A stretch of DNA of 64,000 nucleotides from Candidatus Aminicenantes bacterium (GCA_963805045.1 CAWDTC010000025.1:42372-106371), one strand, 5' to 3'. Shown: positions 11,439 to 62,851, counted from the stretch's first letter. Notes: generated by a model from the letters alone, not told the origin. Numbers and translations: made by a program.

Positions 11439-12822
11439 CACAGCCCTCCTTGCGGTGAACCATGGGGGACAGTCCCCCCGGGAGGGGACTGTCCCTCTCT
11501 TTCTTCCGGGGGAGCGTCCGGACCCTGCCGGACCAGCCGGAGGATGACGGAGACGCCGGCCGCCGCGATGAGCGCGTAGACCGCGGCGAAGAGGACGAGC
11601 GAGAACAGGATCTGCCCCGCGGGCACGACGACGGAGACGGCGTCCGCCGTCCTGAGGACGCGGAAGACCGCCCAGGGCTGGCGGCCGACCTCGGCCGCGA
11701 ACCAGCCGAACTCGTTGGCGAGGTAGGGGAGAGGCACGGCCAGGACGAGGAGCCGGAGGTACCAGCGCGGGACGGCCTTCCCCTTCCGGGCGAGGAAGGC
11801 CGCGCCCGGGACGGCCATCACGATGAACAGCAGGCCGAGGAGGATCATCAGGTGGTATCCGGCGAAGGGCAGGAGGACGGGCGGCCGCTCGTTCTTGGGG
11901 AACTCCGAGAGCCCCCGGACCTCGGTGCCCGTGTCGAAACCGACGAGGAAGCTGAGAAGGCCTGGGATGCGGAACGGCGAGACGCGTCGTCTCGGCCTTC
12001 TCGTCGGGGATGCCGAAGACCGTGAACGGCGCCCCGGTCCGGGTCCGCCACAGGGCCTCGAAGGCGGCCATCTTCTCCGGCTGGGTCCGCGCGACCTGGA
12101 CCGAGTGGGCGTGGCCCGAGCCGAGCTGGAGGACCGACGCCGGCGACGAACACGGCCAGGGCCGTTCTCAGGAGGAGCCCGGCCTTGTTCCCGCGCCCTG
12201 TCCTTGAGGAGGAGCCAGGCGGCGATGGCCGCCGCGACGAGCGAGCCCGTGATCCAGCCGCCGAGGACGGTGTGGACGAAGCGGACGACGGTCGACGGGT
12301 TGAGGGCGGCCCGGCCGAAGTCCGTCAGGCAGGGCCCGGCCCGCCTCCATCCGGAAGCCCGCCGGCGTCTGCATCCAGGAGTTGGCGATGATGATCCAGA
12401 CCCCGGAGAGGTGGGAGGCGAAGAAGACGAGGAAGGCCGAGACCCAGTACATCTTCGGCGAGACGCGGCGCCGCCCGAAGACGAGGATGCCCAGGAAGAC
12501 GGATTCGAGGAAGAAGGAGAAGACGCCTTCGGCCGCGAGCGGCGCGCCGAAGATGTCGCCGACCGTCCGCGCATAGGCCGACCAGTTGTTGCCGAAGGCG
12601 AACTCGAGGGCGATCCCGGTGGCGACGCCCATGACGAAGACGACGCCCAGGATCCTGACGAGGAAGCTCGAGACGTCCCGGGCCAGTTCGTCCTTCTTCC
12701 GGAGAGAGCGGGATTCCAGGATGAGGATGACGAGCGTCAGGCCGAAGGTCGTCGGCGGGAAAGAGGAAGTGGAAACCGGCGGTCAGGCCGAACTGTAGCC
12801 GGGCCAGAAAGACCGGGTCCAT
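11438..12822 (-). CDS. cydA: Cytochrome bd ubiquinol oxidase subunit I (multiple frame breaks)
   Basis: N-terminus MDPVFLARLQFGLTAGFHFLFP (RBS AAGGAGG, ATG at 12822). Q-loop region GIALEFAFGNNWSAYARTVGDIFGAPLAAEG is in ORF 12168-12632. C-terminus is in ORF 11438-12574. The stop TGA overlaps the cydB ATG (ATGA). Confidence 0.75.
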
Positions 12823-12963
12823 GGGGCCCTCCTTCGCGCCGGCGGCCGGGATCAAGGGGGCCAGCCCCCGGGGGACCGACCTCTCCTGATTCCCCTTCCG
12901 GACGGCGAGGGAAATATAGACGAGGCCGCGCTCCGAATCAAGAGGGACGGTCCCCGCCCCGCG

Positions 12964-14484: not shown

Positions 14485-14970
14485 ATGACGAGCGACAGGA
14501 CGCCGATGACGCCGGCCGTGCGCGTCCTCAAGGACGCCGGCGTGGCCTTCAGCGAACATCCCTACCGTTACGTCGAGCGCGGCGGGACGGCGATCTTCGC
14601 CGCGGAGTCGGGCGTCGACGAGCATGCGGTCATCAAGACCCTCGTCATGGAGGACGACACGAAGCGGCCCTTCGTCGTCCTCATGCACGGCGACCGGGAG
14701 GTCTCGACCAGGGAAATGGCCCGCGTCCTGGGGGTCAAGACGGTCCGTCCGTGCGCGCCCGGGACGGCCCAGCGTCATTCGGGCTACATGGTCGGCGGCA
14801 CGTCGCCCTTCGGCCTGCGCAAGCCCATGCCGGTCTACGTCGAGGAGACGATTCTCGCTCTGCCGAAGATCTACATCAACGGGGGAAAGCGCGGCTTCCT
14901 CGTCGGCCTCGACCCGAAGGACCTGGCCCGTGTCCTCGGGCCGACCCCCGTCCGCGTCGCCACTGTTTAG
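14485..14970 (+). CDS. ybaK: Cys-tRNA(Pro)/Cys-tRNA(Cys) deacylase YbaK
   Basis: Intact 161-aa ORF typical of the YbaK/EbsC family (VLMHGDREVSTREMARVLG...GGTSPFG). Confidence 0.85.
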   Translation: MTSDRTPMTPAVRVLKDAGVAFSEHPYRYVERGGTAIFAAESGVDEHAVIKTLVMEDDTKRPFVVLMHGDREVSTREMARVLGVKTVRPCAPGTAQRHSGYMVGGTSPFGLRKPMPVYVEETILALPKIYINGGKRGFLVGLDPKDLARVLGPTPVRVATV

Positions 14971-14977
14971 AATCACG

Positions 14978-15210
14978 GAGGGACTGTCCCCGGCAGCGCC
15001 TGGGGGAGACTGAACCGCACATGACCTTCCGTCCAATCCCCGGGGCCGCTCAGGCTCTTAGGGTGGCGACGAGACCGTCCGAAAGCCCCCGTTTGGAGGG
15101 GGACCCGGCGGGATTTCCGACGGGGGAACCGGGACAGGTTCCCGGGGGCCGGGGGATAAGGACGGCCTTGGCGCCACCGCACCTGCTGACGCGGGGGACA
15201 GGACCTCTCC
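14978..15210. repeat. Copy 1 of a two-copy structured intergenic element (GGGAC-T-GTCCC palindrome, 27-nt module, hairpin-rich core of about 130 nt)
   Basis: Core 15057-15185 aligns with 45766-45907 (shared CCGTTTGGARGGGGACCCG, GGGGGAACCGGGACAGGTTCCCGGGG, CCGGGGGATAAGRACGGCCTTG and closing stem GTGGCGAC/GTCGCCAC with compensatory changes). Lies between the convergent ybaK and kdpD-N genes. Confidence 0.5.
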
Positions 15211-15221
15211 GACCGGGTTGG

Positions 15222-16913
15222 TCACCGCGCCGCTTCGCTGTCTTCCCAATCGCGGATCGTCCGTATGGCCTCCTCCGGGGTCCGGACCGACCTCAGGACC
15301 TGCATGAGTTGCCTGTTCTGGGCGGCCCGGCTGGCCAGGCCCAGCAGCTGGACCTGGGTCCCGGGGGTCTCGGCCGGGGACAGGAGGAGAAAGACGATCT
15401 CGATGGGCTTGTCCGTGGCCACGTCGATGACGCCCTCCTTCGTCAGCCCGAGGACGACGACCGGTTCCTTCAGTCCCTCCACCCGGACGTGGGGGAAGGC
15501 GACGCCCTCGTTGAAGAACGTCGAGCCCTGCGCCTCCCGCGCCATGATGGCCGCGAACAGGGCTTCGGCGTCCCCGCCGCCGGCCTCCGGTCCGACGGTC
15601 GCGGCCAGGGCGCACAGCACGCCTTCCCTCTCTGCGGCCGTCTCCCAGATGACGACCCGTGGGGAGGACAGCCACCGGCTGAGCCGGGGACGGTCCGCCG
15701 GCGCGGCGCCGGCGCCTCCGGCCGCAGCGACCCCCGCCGTTTCCTGCTCGGGGATCTCGGGCCGGGGCCGGACGGACTCCGGCAGGTCCTCGCACGTGTC
15801 GAGGACGATGACGGTGATCCCCCGGGCGTTCCTGATGAGAGCGTCGATGACGTTCCTGTTCCGGCCGAGCCGCTTCCAGAACGGCTTGGGCTGGGCCCGG
15901 CCGACGACGATGTGGCCGACCCGGTATTCCCGGGCGAAACGGAGGAGCGTGTCGGCGATGTCCTCCCCCTTGTAGGTGAAGACCATCGCCCCGAGCTGCT
16001 TGGCCAGGGTCAGGGAGTCCGAGAGATGGCGCTGGACTTCGGCGTCGATGACCGTGGCTTCCTCCGACGGCGTCTGGACATAGACGGCGTACCAGTTCCG
16101 GTTGAGCCTCCCCGCCAGCCGCGAGCCGTAGCGCAGGAGCTTCTCGCTGTTCGGGCCGTGCGAGCTCAGGCAGACCATGACCTGGTCGGACGAAGCGCCG
16201 GCCTCCGCCCCCTGCGCCTCCCGCCGCCGCAGGTCGATCTGCGAGGCCAGCTCCCGCAGGGTCAGCTCGCGGAGCTTCTCCAGGTTGGAGGGGGTGAAGA
16301 AATTGGCCAGGGCGGTCTCGATGCGTTCGGTCGGGTAGATCTTGCCGTCCTCCAGGCGCTGCCGCAGGTCCTCCGTGGCCAGGTCGACGTCGACGATCTC
16401 GTCGGCCTCGGCCAGGATCGAGTCGGGGATGCGCTCGCGGACCTTGACCCCGACGGCGTTCTCGACGATGTTGTAGAGGCTCTCGAGATGCTGGACGTTG
16501 AGCGTGGTGATGACGTGGATGCCGGCCGCCAGGATGTCCTGGACGTCCTCGTAGCGCTTGGCGTTCCGGCTGCCGGGGACGTTCGTGTGGGCCAGCTCGT
16601 CGATGAGGGCGACCTGGGGCTTGCGGGCCAGGATGGCGTCCACGTCCATCTCCTCGACGGCGATGCCGTGGTATTCCTGGGTGCGCCGCGGCACGACCTC
16701 GAGGCCCTGGGCGAGCCGGGCGATGTCCGCCCGGCCGTGCGTCTCGAGGAGGCCGATGACGACGTCGATGCCCTCGGCCTTGAGCCGGTGGCCCTCCTGG
16801 AGCATCTGGTAGGTCTTGCCGACGCCCGCGGAATAGCCGAGGTAGACCTTGAGCCGGCCCCGCTGGGCGCTGCGGATCATGCGGAGGAAGGCGTCGGCCT
16901 TATCGTCCGGCAC
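15222..16913 (-). CDS. Kinase-less KdpD sensor module: KdpD N-terminal domain + Usp domain fused to a PTS EIIA(Ntr)-like (EIIA type 2) domain
   Basis: KdpD-N signature LKVYLGYSAGVGKTYQML...ALIDELAHTN. A Usp-OKCHK-like region follows (VMVCLSSHGPNSEKLL...IVVG), then a Gly/Ala linker and an EIIA-2 fold with an active-site-like His (GVAFPHVR...IVFLLLSP). No HisKA/HATPase is present. Confidence 0.8.
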   Translation of the reverse strand: MPDDKADAFLRMIRSAQRGRLKVYLGYSAGVGKTYQMLQEGHRLKAEGIDVVIGLLETHGRADIARLAQGLEVVPRRTQEYHGIAVEEMDVDAILARKPQVALIDELAHTNVPGSRNAKRYEDVQDILAAGIHVITTLNVQHLESLYNIVENAVGVKVRERIPDSILAEADEIVDVDLATEDLRQRLEDGKIYPTERIETALANFFTPSNLEKLRELTLRELASQIDLRRREAQGAEAGASSDQVMVCLSSHGPNSEKLLRYGSRLAGRLNRNWYAVYVQTPSEEATVIDAEVQRHLSDSLTLAKQLGAMVFTYKGEDIADTLLRFAREYRVGHIVVGRAQPKPFWKRLGRNRNVIDALIRNARGITVIVLDTCEDLPESVRPRPEIPEQETAGVAAAGGAGAAPADRPRLSRWLSSPRVVIWETAAEREGVLCALAATVGPEAGGGDAEALFAAIMAREAQGSTFFNEGVAFPHVRVEGLKEPVVVLGLTKEGVIDVATDKPIEIVFLLLSPAETPGTQVQLLGLASRAAQNRQLMQVLRSVRTPEEAIRTIRDWEDSEAAR

Positions 16914-44249: not shown

Positions 44250-45599
44250 CTAGGCCCGGGGCAGCTCCCACGGGCTCCGGTAGGCGCGGCCGACGAGGCG
44301 CTGGGCTTCGGCGTCGCCCGGGATCTCTTCCTTCTCCGCGTCCCAGGCGATACGGCGTCCGAGCCGGTATGAGATATTGGCCAGGTGGCTTGGGATGATG
44401 GAGAGATGGCCCGTCTCGACGTCGGCGGCCGGCTTCTCCCTCGATTTGACGCACGCGACGAAGTTCCGGACGTGGGCGAAATGGAAGTCCTCGGACGAGG
44501 CGCGTCGCGGCCTCCCCGTCATGCGGAAGACCCGGCCGGGCTGGGCGAAAGCGTCCGTCTCCGGGACGACCTCGTAGCCGCCGCGGTCGACGACGAGGAC
44601 GCCGTTCTGGCCGTGGAACTCGACGCCGTGCTCGCGCTGCCAGGGGCCGAGGCCGCAGCCGATCATGTGCTCCCAGAGGAGGGAATGGTCCTTGAACTCG
44701 ACCAGGGCCTTGGCCGTGTCCGGCGTTTCGTTGATATCGTCCGGATAGGCGAGTTTGCCGCCGGCGGCCGACGCCCCGAGCGGGGCCCCGCCCAGGGCCC
44801 AGAGGGCGACATCGATCATGTGCGCCCCCCAGTCGACTTGGAGACCGCCCGAGTAGTCCCAGAACCAGCGGAAATTGTGGTGGAAACGCATCGGGTTGAA
44901 CGGGCGGGCCGCCGCCGGCCCGAGCCAGAAGTCGTAGTCGACGTAGTCCGGCGCCTTGCGGTCGGCCGGTCTCCCGATCGAGCCCTTCCAGTCGAGGCAG
45001 GCCCATGCCCGGACGAAGCGAAGCCGGCCGAGCTCCCCCGAGCGGACGATGTCGACGGCCTCCCGGAAGTGCTCGGCGCTCCGCTGCTGGGTGCCGACCT
45101 GGACGACGCGGCCGTAGCGGCGCGCGGCCCGGACCATGGCCCGGCCCTCGGCGATCGAGGTCGCCAGCGGCTTCTCGACATAGACGTCCTTGCCCGCCTG
45201 GCAGGCCAGGACCGTGGCCAGGGCGTGCCAGTGGTCCGGGGTCGCCACGACGACGGCCTGGACGTCCTTGCGGTCGAGGATGCGCCGGAAATCGCGAAAC
45301 GTGTCGGGCTTGCGGCCGCGATCGTCGGCGACACTCTGGGCCGTTTCGTTGAGCCGGTGGTCGTCGACGTCGGCCAGGGCCGCACACTCGACCTCCGGCA
45401 GGCGGAGCAGGGCGCCGAGGTCGCCCCGGCCCTGGTCCCCGCAGCCGATGAGGGCGACCGTGACCCGGTCGCTGGCGCCGACCTTGGGCGCGGCCTCCTG
45501 GCCCGCGGCTGCCGGCGTCGCGGCCGCGGCCGCCAGGACCGCGGCGCCCGCCGCCTTGGCCGTGCCTCCCACGAACTCCCGTCGGCTGATCGTCTTCAT
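44250..45599 (-). CDS. Tat-signal Gfo/Idh/MocA family NAD(P)-dependent oxidoreductase
   Basis: Intact ORF; SRREFVGGTAKAAGAAVLAAAA Tat signal; Rossmann GxGxxG (IGCGDQG); EKP motif. Confidence 0.85.
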   Translation of the reverse strand: MKTISRREFVGGTAKAAGAAVLAAAAATPAAAGQEAAPKVGASDRVTVALIGCGDQGRGDLGALLRLPEVECAALADVDDHRLNETAQSVADDRGRKPDTFRDFRRILDRKDVQAVVVATPDHWHALATVLACQAGKDVYVEKPLATSIAEGRAMVRAARRYGRVVQVGTQQRSAEHFREAVDIVRSGELGRLRFVRAWACLDWKGSIGRPADRKAPDYVDYDFWLGPAAARPFNPMRFHHNFRWFWDYSGGLQVDWGAHMIDVALWALGGAPLGASAAGGKLAYPDDINETPDTAKALVEFKDHSLLWEHMIGCGLGPWQREHGVEFHGQNGVLVVDRGGYEVVPETDAFAQPGRVFRMTGRPRRASSEDFHFAHVRNFVACVKSREKPAADVETGHLSIIPSHLANISYRLGRRIAWDAEKEEIPGDAEAQRLVGRAYRSPWELPRA

Positions 45600-45667
45600 C
45601 GGCGTCCCTCTCGTCCGGCGTTCGATGACCTTACTATACGGATTTTCGCCCGCCGCATAAAGAGAAA

Positions 45668-45940
45668 AGAGGGACCGTCCCCTGCGGGGACGGTCCCTCT
45701 TGATCCAATGTCGGACGGGAGGAGAGCCGGAGGCCGAAGGGGAATGGCCGGAACGTCATGTGCGGCTTAGCGCAAGTGGCGACAAGGCCGCTCGAAAGAC
45801 CCCGTTTGGAAGGGGACCCGTCCCGTTCCGCCACGGAACGGGACGGGGGAACCGGGACAGGTTCCCGGGGCCGGGGGATAAGAACGGCCTTGTCGCCACT
45901 TCACCTGGACCCGCGCTAGGGCGGGAACGCTCGACCTCTT
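45668..45940. repeat. Copy 2 of the two-copy structured element, with a perfect 15-bp-stem palindrome at 45668-45700
   Basis: Stem AGAGGGACCGTCCCC / GGGGACGGTCCCTCT with loop TGC. The 27-nt module 45739-45765 is the reverse complement of 15015-15041. Core 45766-45907 aligns with 15057-15185. Confidence 0.5.
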
Positions 45941-45950
45941 GACCCGATGG

Positions 45951-45979
45951 TTGAACATCGCCGCGGAGTGCGCTAATAT
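45951..45979 (+). promoter_or_regulatory. Candidate sigma70 promoter TTGAAC-17-TAATAT for the NYN/LOTUS gene
   Basis: Followed by a 40-nt leader with a GGGGAGAAACCCC hairpin and a weak RBS before the ATG at 46021. Confidence 0.45.
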
Positions 45980-46020: not shown

Positions 46021-46881
46021 ATGGTCGAGAACTTCATCGGCGAGAAGACGCGCAAGGTGGCCCTGCTCATCGACGGCGACAACGCCCAGCCGTCCCTCAT
46101 CCACCAGATCCTGACCGAGGCCGGCAAGTACGGCCTGGTGACCATCCGCCGCATCTACGGCGACTGGACGACGACGAGCATGGGCGGCTGGAAAGCGGCC
46201 CTCCACGACAGCGCCATCCAGCCCATCCAGCAGTTCCGCTACACGATCGGCAAGAACGCCACCGACAGCGCCATGATCATCGACGCCATGGACATCCTCC
46301 ACGACCACTTCGTCGACGGCTTCTGCATCGTTTCGAGCGACAGCGACTACACGCGCCTGGCGACGCGGATCCGGGAGGCCGGGTTCTTCGTCATGGGCAT
46401 CGGCAAGCGCTCGACGCCCAAGGCCTTCGTCAACGGCTGCAACGTCTTCATCTACACGGAGAACCTGGTGCCGCGGGAGCGGGAGACACGGCGGCGCGAC
46501 CGGGGCGGGGCGGCGAGGAAGGGCGGCGGCAAGGACGCCGGCAAGGACAGCGGGAAAGAGGCGCGGGAGGCGCGGGAGGCGCGCGAGGACCAGGAGGAGC
46601 GCGAGGAGAAGGGCCGAAAGTTCGACCCCGTGCCGCTCCTGCGGGCCGCCTTCGACATGGCCGTCCACGAGGACGGCTGGGCCAACCTGGGCGAGCTCGG
46701 CTTCTACCTCCGCCAGCTCGACCCCGGCTTCGACCCCCGCACGTACGGCTTCAAGCAGCTTTCCCAGCTCATCAAGAGCCAGCCCGCCCTGTTCGAGGTC
46801 CGGGCGCGCGACGAGGAGGGCGGCGGCTCGGCCGTCTACGCCCGGCTCAGGGAGGGCCGCGACGAGCCCGAGAAGGCCTAG
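46021..46881 (+). CDS. NYN-domain (LabA-like) nuclease with a C-terminal OST-HTH/LOTUS domain
   Basis: Intact 286-aa ORF; VALLIDGDNAQ...SSDSDYTRL core; Arg/Lys/Glu-rich linker; C-terminal LOTUS-like region (WANLGELGFYLRQL). Confidence 0.85.
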   Translation: MVENFIGEKTRKVALLIDGDNAQPSLIHQILTEAGKYGLVTIRRIYGDWTTTSMGGWKAALHDSAIQPIQQFRYTIGKNATDSAMIIDAMDILHDHFVDGFCIVSSDSDYTRLATRIREAGFFVMGIGKRSTPKAFVNGCNVFIYTENLVPRERETRRRDRGGAARKGGGKDAGKDSGKEAREAREAREDQEEREEKGRKFDPVPLLRAAFDMAVHEDGWANLGELGFYLRQLDPGFDPRTYGFKQLSQLIKSQPALFEVRARDEEGGGSAVYARLREGRDEPEKA

Positions 46882-56273: not shown

Positions 56274-56826
56274 TAGTGGCCAATCCCGGCGCCTCTGCCG
56301 GGGCGAGCCCGGCGGGGGCGATACGATTCCCACCTCCGCCCCTAGTGGTCAATCCTGCTTTCCGCCGGGACAAGCCCGGCGGGGGCGAAACGATTCCCAC
56401 CGGCACCTGTAGTAGCCAATCCTGCTTTCCGCCGGGACAAGCCCGGCGGGGAGCAATCTTGCTCTTGGCAGCGCTGGGAAGCGCCTGCCACGCGCCCCCG
56501 CCGGGCCTGCCCCGGCGGAGCGAAGGATTGGCCGACTACGGCCCATTTCCACCAGTCTGTTCCTCGCCCCCGCCGGGCCTGCCCCGGCGGAGCGAAGGAT
56601 TGGCCCACTACGGCCCATTTCCACCAGTTTCTTCGCCCCCGCCGGGCCTGCCCCGGCGGAGCGAAGGATTGGCCCACTACGGCCCATTTCCACCAGTTGT
56701 CCCGCCCCCGCCGGGCCTGCCCCGGCGGAGCGAAGGATTGGCCCACTACGGCCCATTTCCACTCAGTTGTCGGCTCCCCCCGCCGGGCCTGCCCCGGCGG
56801 AGCGAGGATTGGCCCACTACGCGTGC
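56274..56826. repeat. Array of about 70-bp hairpin-containing repeats: 3 diverged units in one orientation, then 5 units (period 69-72 bp) in the opposite orientation; REP/BIME-like
   Basis: Unit CGCCCCCGCCGGGCCTGCCCCGGCGGAGCGAAGGATTGGCCCACTACGGCCCATTTCCACCAGTT, with an 8-bp palindrome CCGCCGGG/CCCGGCGG. It fills the whole interval between the hypothetical gene and the transposase stop. Confidence 0.7.
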
Positions 56827-61879: not shown

Positions 61880-62851
61880 TCAGAGCATCAGCAGGGCGAC
61901 GCCGGCCACCGCCAGCACGGCGCCGCCGACGGCCCGCAGGCCGATCCGCTCGTGATAGACGAGGATGCTCAGCGGCAGGATCAGGACCGGCATGGTGGCG
62001 GTGATGGTGGTCACCACGCCGGCGGAGGAATGTTCCAGGGCGACCATAATCAGCACGGCCCCGGCGAACGGCCCGACGATCGAGCCGACCGTCAGCGCGG
62101 TCATCGCGCGGCGGGTCGCGGAGCGCGGCGAGCATGGCCGGCCAGCGGCGCCAGGCGGTGATCAGGATGACGTAGCCCGGCAAGGCGGCCAGGACGCGGA
62201 TCAGCGTGGCCCCCGCCGCGTCGGGATAGGTCCGCATCACGTCCCTGGAAAAGACCATTCCCGATGGCGCTGGTGGCGGCGGCGAACAGCGCCAGGGCGA
62301 CTCCCCGCCGGTGGGCGGCGGAAAAGTGGGTCCCGCTTGCCGAGCCGGACTTTGCGGTCTGTGCCGCCTAGAGCGGTCCCGCTCGGCAAGCGGGACCTAC
62401 TTCTTCGCCCAGGTCGGGCCGTTCGAGCACGACCCAGGCCACGCCGGCCAAGGTGATTCCCATCGCCACCCAACCCCGCAGGGTCAAGACGTCGCCGATC
62501 AGCAGCGAGACCAGGGCCGTAATCGGCGGGGTCAAGGAGAAGACCAGCAGCACCCGCCGCGGCCCGATCAACAACATGGCCTTGAACAGACAGACGTCGC
62601 AGAGGAAGAAGCCCAGAAAGCCGGAGATTCCCAGCAGGAGCCAGGTCCGCGGGCTGGCGTCGGTCGGCAGCCACCGCCCGCCGGCCAGCGGCGCGTAGGC
62701 CATCAGCAGCCCGCAGGCAATCACCAGGCGGAGAAAGCTGACGGCCAGCGAGCCGGTGCGTTTTCCGGCCGCGGTCAAGAAGAGCGACGGAGAGCGTCCA
62801 CAGGATCGCGGTCCCCAGCGCCGCCAATTCGCCGACGTTCGAGTCAGGCCA

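Follow-up and report, generated by a model that had tools for sequence, protein, structure and literature searches.

A family of mosaic intergenic repeats with a strand-constrained structured core in Aminicenantes bacteria

Background

Several kinds of short non-coding repeat populate the intergenic regions of bacteria. REPINs are mobilised by RAYT transposases, ERIC sequences are imperfect palindromes of 127 nt found in enterobacteria and resembling MITEs (short for miniature inverted-repeat transposable elements), and insertion sequences such as IS608 and ISDra2 move by single-strand HUH transposition at a fixed short sequence. The hairpins of REPINs are predicted to form in single-stranded DNA (ssDNA) or mRNA, with compensatory changes reported (PMC3116915), and MITEs are expected to carry a target-site duplication of 2-10 bp (PMC11602168). 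Here we describe two look-alike intergenic stretches, at about 14978-15214 and 45702-45934, in 64,000 nt of Candidatus Aminicenantes bacterium DNA (GCA_963805045.1 CAWDTC010000025.1:42372-106371), a stretch that we refer to at its full length as the window and whose first letter is position 1. Both are members of a previously undescribed repeat family with more than 140 copies in Aminicenantes bacteria.

The sequence-only reading of this DNA had described a structured element present in two copies, with an internal 27-nt module in opposite orientations, and had proposed that it was a small structured RNA, a MITE-like element or an invertible, phase-variable segment. Both copies are real, as members of a dispersed family and not as a two-copy curiosity, and the second of the three identities is the best supported. 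The copies are numerous and intergenic, lie in any orientation, carry terminal inverted repeats, are mosaic and host nested insertions, and they occupy sites that are filled, empty or decayed among related genomes, both window loci included, with no partner gene nearby; these properties place the family with repeats of the MITE, ERIC, BOX, RUP, Correia and REPIN kind. On balance we therefore consider both loci to be, probably, copies of a non-autonomous mosaic repeat element, mobile or recently mobile, that is specific to an Aminicenantes (Acidobacteriota) clade.

Results and discussion

Identification of the repeat family

The two stretches lie where the sequence-only reading had located them, and a MAFFT alignment of 14960-15230 with 45660-45960 contains long identical blocks. 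The cores are at 15062-15178 (copy 1) and 45774-45901 (copy 2). The 24-mer GGGGGAACCGGGACAGGTTCCCGG has two exact matches in the window, at 15122 and 45845, on the + strand each time, and occurs in none of 100 shuffles.

An 18-nt core pattern (CCCGTTTGGANGGGGACCC), applied to one genome per species for 185,579 species, returned 37 loci, 34 of them true copies, all in three metagenome-assembled genomes (MAGs). Two of these MAGs are labelled Candidatus Aminicenantes; the third bears the label Terriglobales, but its loci share about 90% identity with loci from one Aminicenantes MAG. A second, non-overlapping pattern (GGGACAGGTTCCCN{4,14}GGGGAYRAG) gave 98 stretches in metagenome records of the Joint Genome Institute with the prefixes Ga0187770-78, Ga0335069-71, Ga0153915, Ga0315282 and Ga0187854, which we take to be peat and wetland projects. 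The covariance model R1, built from the 34 copies, found 41 copies when the MAG loci and the window were searched; the first 80 metagenome loci contributed 84, and the remaining ones added to this number. Within the window it found the known two only. Proteins encoded in the window share 94-97% identity with metagenome proteins and 80-90% with proteins whose annotation is Aminicenantes or Aminicenantales, which indicates where the organism belongs. Exact-sequence look-ups of the window's YbaK and NYN proteins found neither, so the collection consulted does not include the source genome.

Rfam 15, a search of which the sequence-only reading had proposed as a check, holds no family that matches either copy: nothing in the whole window reached the gathering score, and at E values up to 10 there were only chance-level matches around both copies and in the full-length element. 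Viral contigs gave zero matches to either core pattern, hence no sign of a phage origin, and literature searches that combined Aminicenantes with MITE or RNA-motif terms found no paper on such an element.

A covarying stem encloses a nearly invariant interior

Read 5' to 3' on the + strand, the core of about 120 nt comprises the 5' strand of a 19-bp closing stem (P1), the sequence GAAAG, the hairpin P2, a single A, the hairpins P3 and P4, a joiner and the P1 3' strand, with P1 enclosing an almost invariant interior of about 80 nt that contains the three hairpins. P2 is formed by CCCC, a GUUUGGAR loop and GGGG, and is followed by the A; P4 is formed by GGGAACC, a GGGACA loop and GGUUCCC, and is followed by the G-rich joiner GGGG(n)CCGGGGGAUAA. 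P3 occurs as at least three alleles, one of 5 bp (GGCGGGAUUUCCGAC), one of 11-14 bp (GUGCCGUUCCG-UUG-CGGAACGGUAC) and a third form (GUCGGCCUUGCGAC).

Copy 1 has its P1 strands at 15062-15080 (GGTGGCGACGAGACCGTCC) and 15160-15178 (GGACGGCCTTGGCGCCACC), with 16 of the 19 pairs covarying in alignment A3, and an interior at 15081-15159 made up of GAAAG, P2 (CCCC-GUUUGGAG-GGGG, 15087-15102), the short P3 allele (15107-15121), P4 exactly as given above (15124-15143) and the joiner (GGGGGCCGGGGGAUAA, 15144-15159), all on the + strand. The same order is found on the + strand of copy 2, where the P1 strands at 45774-45793 and 45882-45901 pair over 20 nt at 95% around an interior at 45794-45881 that begins with GAAAG and holds P2 (45800-45815), P3 (45817-45847), P4 (45847-45866) and the joiner (GGGGCCGGGGGAUAA, 45867-45881). 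The perfect hairpin previously noticed in copy 2 alone is the long P3 allele, of 14 bp, and copy 1 carries the short one.

Both cores are more stable than their shuffles when folded as RNA (z = -3.1 and -8.2), and as DNA too. The expectation of further copies with covariation was borne out in MAGs and metagenomes alike: 16 of the 19 P1 pairs have changed on both sides among the 34 MAG copies, and double changes occur in 17 of the 19 in the independent metagenome set of 84 copies, so the compensatory differences first seen in the outer stem of the window pair are genuine. In the MAG set 93% of P1 cells are paired, a share that drops to 35-56% if the partner strand is shifted by 1-3 columns. The metagenome set also has double changes in all three basal pairs of P3. 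P2 and P4 barely vary; of their departures from the commonest pair, about half are one-sided and wobble-compatible on the + strand whereas the rest disrupt pairing, which makes P2 and P4 plausible rather than proven helices.

Conservation, measured only on stretches that the search patterns leave unfixed, is highest in P4 with the joiner (mean pairwise identity 0.94 in the MAG set) and in GAAAG-P2 (0.91 in the metagenome set), and falls to 0.67-0.73 in the P1 arms and 0.50 in P3. REPINs resemble this family in being intergenic units of about 100 nt, present in tens to hundreds of copies, that form a long single-strand hairpin with compensatory changes (PMC3116915); both are non-coding and yield decayed singlets and clusters. 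Unlike REPINs, in which the arms (REP sequences) are conserved and the spacer is variable, the Aminicenantes elements vary in the arms and conserve an asymmetric centre, and they have extra outer inverted repeats and modules.

Two other interpretations of the core were discarded. A hammerhead-like reading of GAAAG ... GAUAAG fails by inspection at the conserved junction nucleotides, which do not fit. Coding potential is ruled out by indels and compensatory changes: the copies differ by 1-3 nt in the G run and by 10 nt in the length of P3, and the peptides that the open reading frame (ORF) track shares between the two loci are, as the sequence-only reading had supposed, artefacts.

The constraint acts on one strand

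Model R1 scores the copies at 100-136 bits on the + strand and at 15-35 bits on the reverse strand. Counted over 88 copies whose P1 sequences are distinct, the stem has 131 G·U and 59 A·C oppositions (binomial p = 2e-7), and the excess is present in every gene context, with G·U:A·C counts of 17:5 in tandem-sense, 27:13 in tandem-antisense, 21:8 in convergent and 21:10 in divergent copies. A decaying double-stranded palindrome would give about 1:1, and a constraint exerted through host mRNA would reverse the ratio in the antisense copies. We therefore infer that what is constrained, independently of host transcription, is the element's own + strand, in the form of ssDNA or of a transcript of the element itself.

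A functional structured RNA, such as a small RNA in multiple copies, an RNA that binds a protein or a ribozyme that cleaves itself, would meet much of this evidence if it were spread by or embedded in the repeat and its intact copies were kept by selection. The covarying closing stem around an invariant interior, P2 and P4 changes that tend to be wobble-compatible on the + strand, the fold that beats its shuffles, the difference in model score between strands and the strong one-strand excess of G·U over A·C would all follow, and to this extent the proposal of a small structured RNA has gained a real fold and a favoured strand. It sits less well with the lack of any Rfam match even at E = 10 and with interior helices of which only the base of P3 has compensatory support, P2 and P4 showing one-sided changes only. 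A scan for sigma-70-like promoters and intrinsic terminators, which covers no other promoter types, found none belonging to the element. Together with the placement and turnover of the copies, described below, these points lead us to regard a functional RNA as rather unlikely.

Architecture of the complete element

All-against-all BLAST of the flanks, fuzzy motif searches and a hidden Markov model (HMM) of the end modules were used to define the whole element, which spans 230-600 nt and consists of a left terminal inverted repeat, a hairpin that we call U, a linker, the 120-nt core and a right terminal inverted repeat. The left repeat (GGAGCGGACGGGTCCTGTCCGTGTGCGTCCCCG) lies 58-165 nt or more upstream of the core; the right repeat begins 4 nt after the core and is the reverse complement of the left one. 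U is a long imperfect hairpin (GGGGCCUC GGGGAUUGGCC UCCACUCCAGA GUGCGG ... CCGCAC AUGACGUUCC GGCCAAUCCCC GAGGCCCC), and the linker between U and the core ends in ...CUAGCGCAG. The end-module HMM has 58 matches across 51 of the fetched loci (designated by L numbers), and at L112 the terminal inverted repeats are 34 nt long and 79% complementary.

The left terminal repeat of copy 1 (GAGGGACTGTCCCCGGC, 14978-14994, + strand) is homologous to the left-end module GGAGCGGACGGGTCCTGTCC... found elsewhere and pairs over 17 nt, at 82%, with 15191-15207 in the right terminal module (GCACCTGCTGACGCGGGGGACAGGACCTCTCCGACC, 15179-15214, + strand), which many copies have 4 nt past the core. This right module is what had been recorded as CACCTG...GACCTCT following both cores; that of copy 2 (CACCTGGACCCGCGCTAGGGCGGGAACGCTCGA, 45902-45934, + strand) ends the element there, as is evident from the filled site in the window and in L141 and the empty one in L144. 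The left end of copy 2 (45702-45738, + strand) is degenerate and consists of GATCC, a remnant of the left repeat (TGTCGGACGGG, 45709-45719) and a spacer; it resembles the left ends of L008 and L112, and its boundary is taken from the empty site in L144. Because of this comparison of filled and empty sites we set the limits of copy 2 at about 45702-45934 and assign the hairpin at 45667-45701 to the host.

The GGGAC-N-GTCCC palindrome described in front of both copies is indeed present at both, only not as a homologous part of the element. That of copy 1 (GGGAC-T-GTCCC) sits in the left terminal inverted repeat; that of copy 2 belongs to the terminator-like host hairpin at 45667-45701, which persists at the empty orthologous site in L144, and is thereby ruled out as an element part. 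This hairpin, on the - strand, has no gene upstream on its strand and is conserved at the relative's empty site nonetheless. It is one of three terminator-like hairpins with palindromic arms (GGGGACnGTCCCC), the others being at 11464-11497 and 12944-12960, and the GGGAC-N-GTCCC motif (GGGACNGTCCC) occurs six times in the window against 0.3 expected, the latter two, unrelated hairpins being among its sites.

Orientation of the 27-nt module

The resemblance between 15015-15041 and the reverse complement of 45739-45765 holds as reported, with 24 of 27 positions identical and no such match in shuffles. Within U, this 27-mer forms the 3' arm; the hairpin as a whole is an imperfect palindrome of about 65 nt whose base stem is formed by inverted repeats of 11-19 bp (GGGGCCTCGGGGATTGGCC / GGCCAATCCCCGAGGCCCC). 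Copy 1 has the arm in forward orientation together with the linker (GGGGCCGCTCAGGC) at 15013-15055 (+ strand), 43 nt that are 91% identical to the consensus of the long U form and linker; copy 2 has it inverted, in a truncated module, at 45739-45765 (- strand). Across the family, U lies upstream of the core in the forward orientation of copy 1 in 24 copies and in the inverted orientation of copy 2 in six, and L112 has one U on either side of the core. The linker that follows U has the same orientation in both classes, which means that U was turned between its own base-stem repeats and the core was not.

Had U been part of an invertible segment that a recombinase flips to switch a neighbouring gene, its bounding inverted repeats of 11-19 bp and its occurrence in both orientations across copies would be explained. 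The orientation is nevertheless identical within all four orthologous groups that were compared (L031/L064/L125, L051/L129, L005/L025 and L002/L135); the 97% relative of copy 2 lacks U and has other modules in its place; no promoter-like site was found in or near U; and no recombinase gene recurs beside the elements. A phase-variable switch is accordingly very hard to credit. The inversion of the 27-mer is that of a palindromic module fixed in either orientation in different paralogous lineages, with no switch at a single locus.

U is variable in other ways. Its apical loop can house a further 260 nt (L005, L025, L035) or an entire element (L112). The truncated U of copy 2 is fused to the core at TTAGCGCAAG, a site that resembles the usual pre-core sequence CTAGCGCAG, and the resemblance suggests that the fusion may have arisen by deletion between short homologies.

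Modular mosaics of this type are known from BOX, RUP and SPRITE of Streptococcus pneumoniae and from the Correia elements of Neisseria, which share with the present family a non-coding, intergenic character, stable folds and variable modules (PMC3049150). Their modules are unrelated to ours in sequence, and a covarying stem of 19 bp that encloses an invariant interior with several hairpins is known from none of them; in Correia and RUP, terminal repeats and target duplications are clear and candidate transposases have been identified.

A nested second element and a possible single-strand mechanism

About ten metagenome copies have GAAAGCCCCCGUUUGG replaced by an insert of about 200 nt with long inverted ends (GGCAGGGAACGGAGUCUUCGGAGUGACC ... 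GGUCGCUCGCAAGGCUUCGCUCCCUGCCGG), which we call MITE-B; in the copies interrupted in this way the P1 5' strand is displaced 200 nt upstream. MITE-B is also found at the position of P3 (L116, L043) and directly after either terminal repeat, and CCGTCC precedes it in every case. At L112 (4732-4917) it consists of two 90-nt halves that are 73% complementary; further examples occur in L095 (about 1122-1330, - strand), L090 and L104, and lone half-copies lie upstream of the gene for an NYN-domain protein in L141, L145 and L146. The window contains neither MITE-B nor other modules of the family outside the two copies.

The IS200/IS605-derived palindrome-associated elements (PATEs) share with the family a structural constraint on one strand; they have no target duplication, and no consistent one is seen in the family. 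The position of MITE-B just 3' of a fixed CCGTCC resembles the rule followed by single-strand HUH transposases. By analogy, the CCGTCC rule and the lack of a consistent target duplication recall HUH transposition and offer a lead. Unlike IS200/IS605 elements, whose ends are short subterminal hairpins without terminal inverted repeats, the Aminicenantes elements combine a 120-nt four-helix module with terminal repeats, and no TnpA or TnpB gene was seen at the loci.

A mechanism can be outlined from these features. The core would be a cis-acting folded module that a putative trans-acting enzyme recognises on one specific strand, in the form of ssDNA or of an RNA derived from the element, and this recognition would serve propagation. 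P1 drifts in sequence with its pairing preserved around a nearly invariant interior, and the core is the part that is kept, many copies being shortened, rearranged or interrupted by MITE-B. It is a bolder and distinctly speculative idea, to which we give little weight, that the core represents a new class of strand-specific functional structure, either a module for recognition or processing in some undescribed system of Acidobacteriota that works by single-strand transposition or retro-mobilisation, or a new catalytic or protein-binding RNA carried by a mobile element. If this were true, the invariant G-rich interior and the covarying stem would be maintained by function and not by recent copying.

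Gene context

All copies are intergenic, 26 of them between divergent genes, 24 tandem-antisense, 22 tandem-sense and 17 convergent, so that orientation is effectively random. A riboswitch-like leader would keep a fixed position and the sense orientation, whereas these elements occur at about equal frequency in the four gene arrangements, beside genes that have nothing in common; the family is not of that kind. For a functional RNA this placement would leave about half of the copies without sense read-through, and no gene orientation is preferred.

Recruitment by the host as repeats of the REP/BIME kind, serving as sites for nucleoid or topology proteins, as transcription insulators or as mRNA-stabilising hairpins, would suit elements that are strictly intergenic, occupy all four gene arrangements and often adjoin terminator-like hairpins, and at L008 the P1 stem is itself followed by a U run in the manner of a terminator. 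Neither a simple hairpin nor a site in double-stranded DNA would, however, produce a one-strand G·U excess independent of gene direction or need an invariant, asymmetric interior of 80 nt; presence at orthologous loci is, moreover, not conserved. We judge host recruitment improbable, and more so than a functional RNA.

The genes that flank copy 1, one ybaK-like (14485-14970, + strand) and one kdpD-like (15222-16913, - strand), face it with their 3' ends, and copy 2 lies between the 5' ends of genes for a Gfo/Idh/MocA oxidoreductase (44250-45599, - strand) and an NYN-domain protein (46021-46881, + strand). These ybaK-like, kdpD-like, oxidoreductase and NYN genes are the neighbours at the window loci, and no neighbour gene recurs in the family apart from same-locus orthologues. 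The kdpD-like gene encodes the KdpD N-terminal domain and a PTS EIIA-2 domain (PF02702 + PF00359) without a histidine-kinase domain, an architecture common to thousands of homologues.

In 11 of 12 independent cases, copies that share a contig point in one direction, the window pair, 30.7 kb apart, among them; the loci concerned are L002, L013, L021/L033, L025, L043, L050, L066, L076 and the window. As a check on orientation relative to replication, mean GC skew in the orientation of the element (0.001 +/- 0.004) and the share of coding bases on its strand (0.465 +/- 0.029) gave no signal. Local spread that preserves orientation is one possibility for this co-orientation.

Turnover at orthologous sites

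Occupancy differs between closely related genomes. L016 carries an element of 358 nt exactly where L020 has 8 nt, and a full element in L091 faces a 66-nt remnant in L006. At the locus of copy 1, none of five relatives (L136-L140), whose KdpD-like proteins are 84-94% identical to that of the window, has a copy: another gene starts 3 nt after kdpD in the 94% relative, and the 87% relative has a spacer of 82 nt. A gene of 262 residues without a Pfam match lies between kdpD and ybaK in L136 and L138-L140 and is absent from the window and L137; the window element occupies its place (14971-15221).

The locus of copy 2 presents a wider range of states. L141, the 97% relative, has the same core, preceded by half of MITE-B and a normal linker, with the U module absent. 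In L142 and L143 (90%) the core has decayed: its interior carries many substitutions and P1 is mismatched. The site is cleanly empty in L144 (88%), where the terminator-like hairpin is followed by 15 nt and the promoter of the NYN gene (TTGAAC-17-TAAGAT), and in the 86% relatives there is only half of MITE-B. Movement of the element would account for these differences in occupancy. The decay and deletion of copies, the persistence of others that insertions have split, and the absence of copy 1 from five of five close relatives again speak against a functional RNA.

ERIC and IRU sequences offer parallels, covered in part by reviews (PMC3184786, PMC10969869): they are intergenic imperfect palindromes of similar size, with internal insertions at fixed sites, presence or absence at orthologous positions and a preserved secondary structure. 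They belong to another phylum and have no sequence relationship to our elements, they have neither modular outer repeats nor an invertible-looking hairpin, and the TA target duplication reported for ERIC has no consistent counterpart here.

In 23 pairs of copies from corresponding loci of different genomes, identity is 93% in the interior, 80% in P1 and 40% in P3. Between the window and L141, with NYN proteins 97% identical, P1 shows a double change from U-A to C-G and P3 five differences, the remaining interior only one. A 15-nt P3 allele faces a 25-nt allele at the same locus in several cases (for example L002/L013, L036/L085 and L037/L087), and such swaps suggest gene conversion among copies. 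Two readings fit these data: selection at each locus on pairing and interior, or frequent gene conversion among copies, by which the two arms of a helix would be transferred jointly and the interior kept homogeneous. The decay in L142 and L143 and the deleted or interrupted copies indicate that not every copy is protected.

Small, non-coding and dispersed in many copies, with terminal inverted repeats and insertion polymorphism between related genomes, the family has much of what characterises MITEs. Several observations weigh against a mobile, non-autonomous repeat all the same. No transposase or other partner gene was found at the loci, where clustering of 624 ORFs yielded orthologous groups only and no transposase-like paralogue family, whole genomes not having been scanned. 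The terminal repeats are degenerate or gone in most copies, including the left end of copy 2. Among copies with both ends, no target-site duplication was found in L010, L067, L082, L112 and L129; TTAG flanks L002 on both sides, and at the copy 2 site even the empty form has CCTCTT two times. Deletion instead of insertion could have produced some of the 'empty' sites. Finally, the interior is better conserved (93%) than P1 (80%) at orthologous loci, a pattern that resembles purifying selection acting on the spot; an element that is purely selfish would have no need of such selection, and a functional RNA would explain it.

Other repeats in the window

Two further repeats were noted. At 56493-56821 there is a tandem array whose five units, each about 70 nt long and carrying CCCCCGCCGGGCCTGCCCCGGCGGAGCGAAGGATTGGCC, are 89-100% identical, with inverted partial copies at 56293-56389; the array is unrelated to the repeat family and absent from all fetched loci. 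A 34-nt inverted repeat at 62317-62409 has arms that are 88% complementary and 25 nt apart.

Conclusion

Aminicenantes are abundant uncultured bacteria of sediment and peat whose mobile DNA and non-coding RNA are essentially uncharted. With its covariance model and an alignment that comprises over 140 copies, the family described here is a well-defined marker, and its members reveal rapid shuffling of modules, insertion and loss between genomes that are 88-97% identical in the neighbouring proteins. For annotation, the peptides shared by the two window loci and the apparent switch are artefacts of repeat DNA. The puzzle lies in a structural constraint on one strand that is indifferent to the direction of host transcription and protects an asymmetric interior of 80 nt; an enzyme or an RNA function behind this constraint would add a case to the persistent structured repeats of bacteria represented by REPIN, ERIC and BOX.

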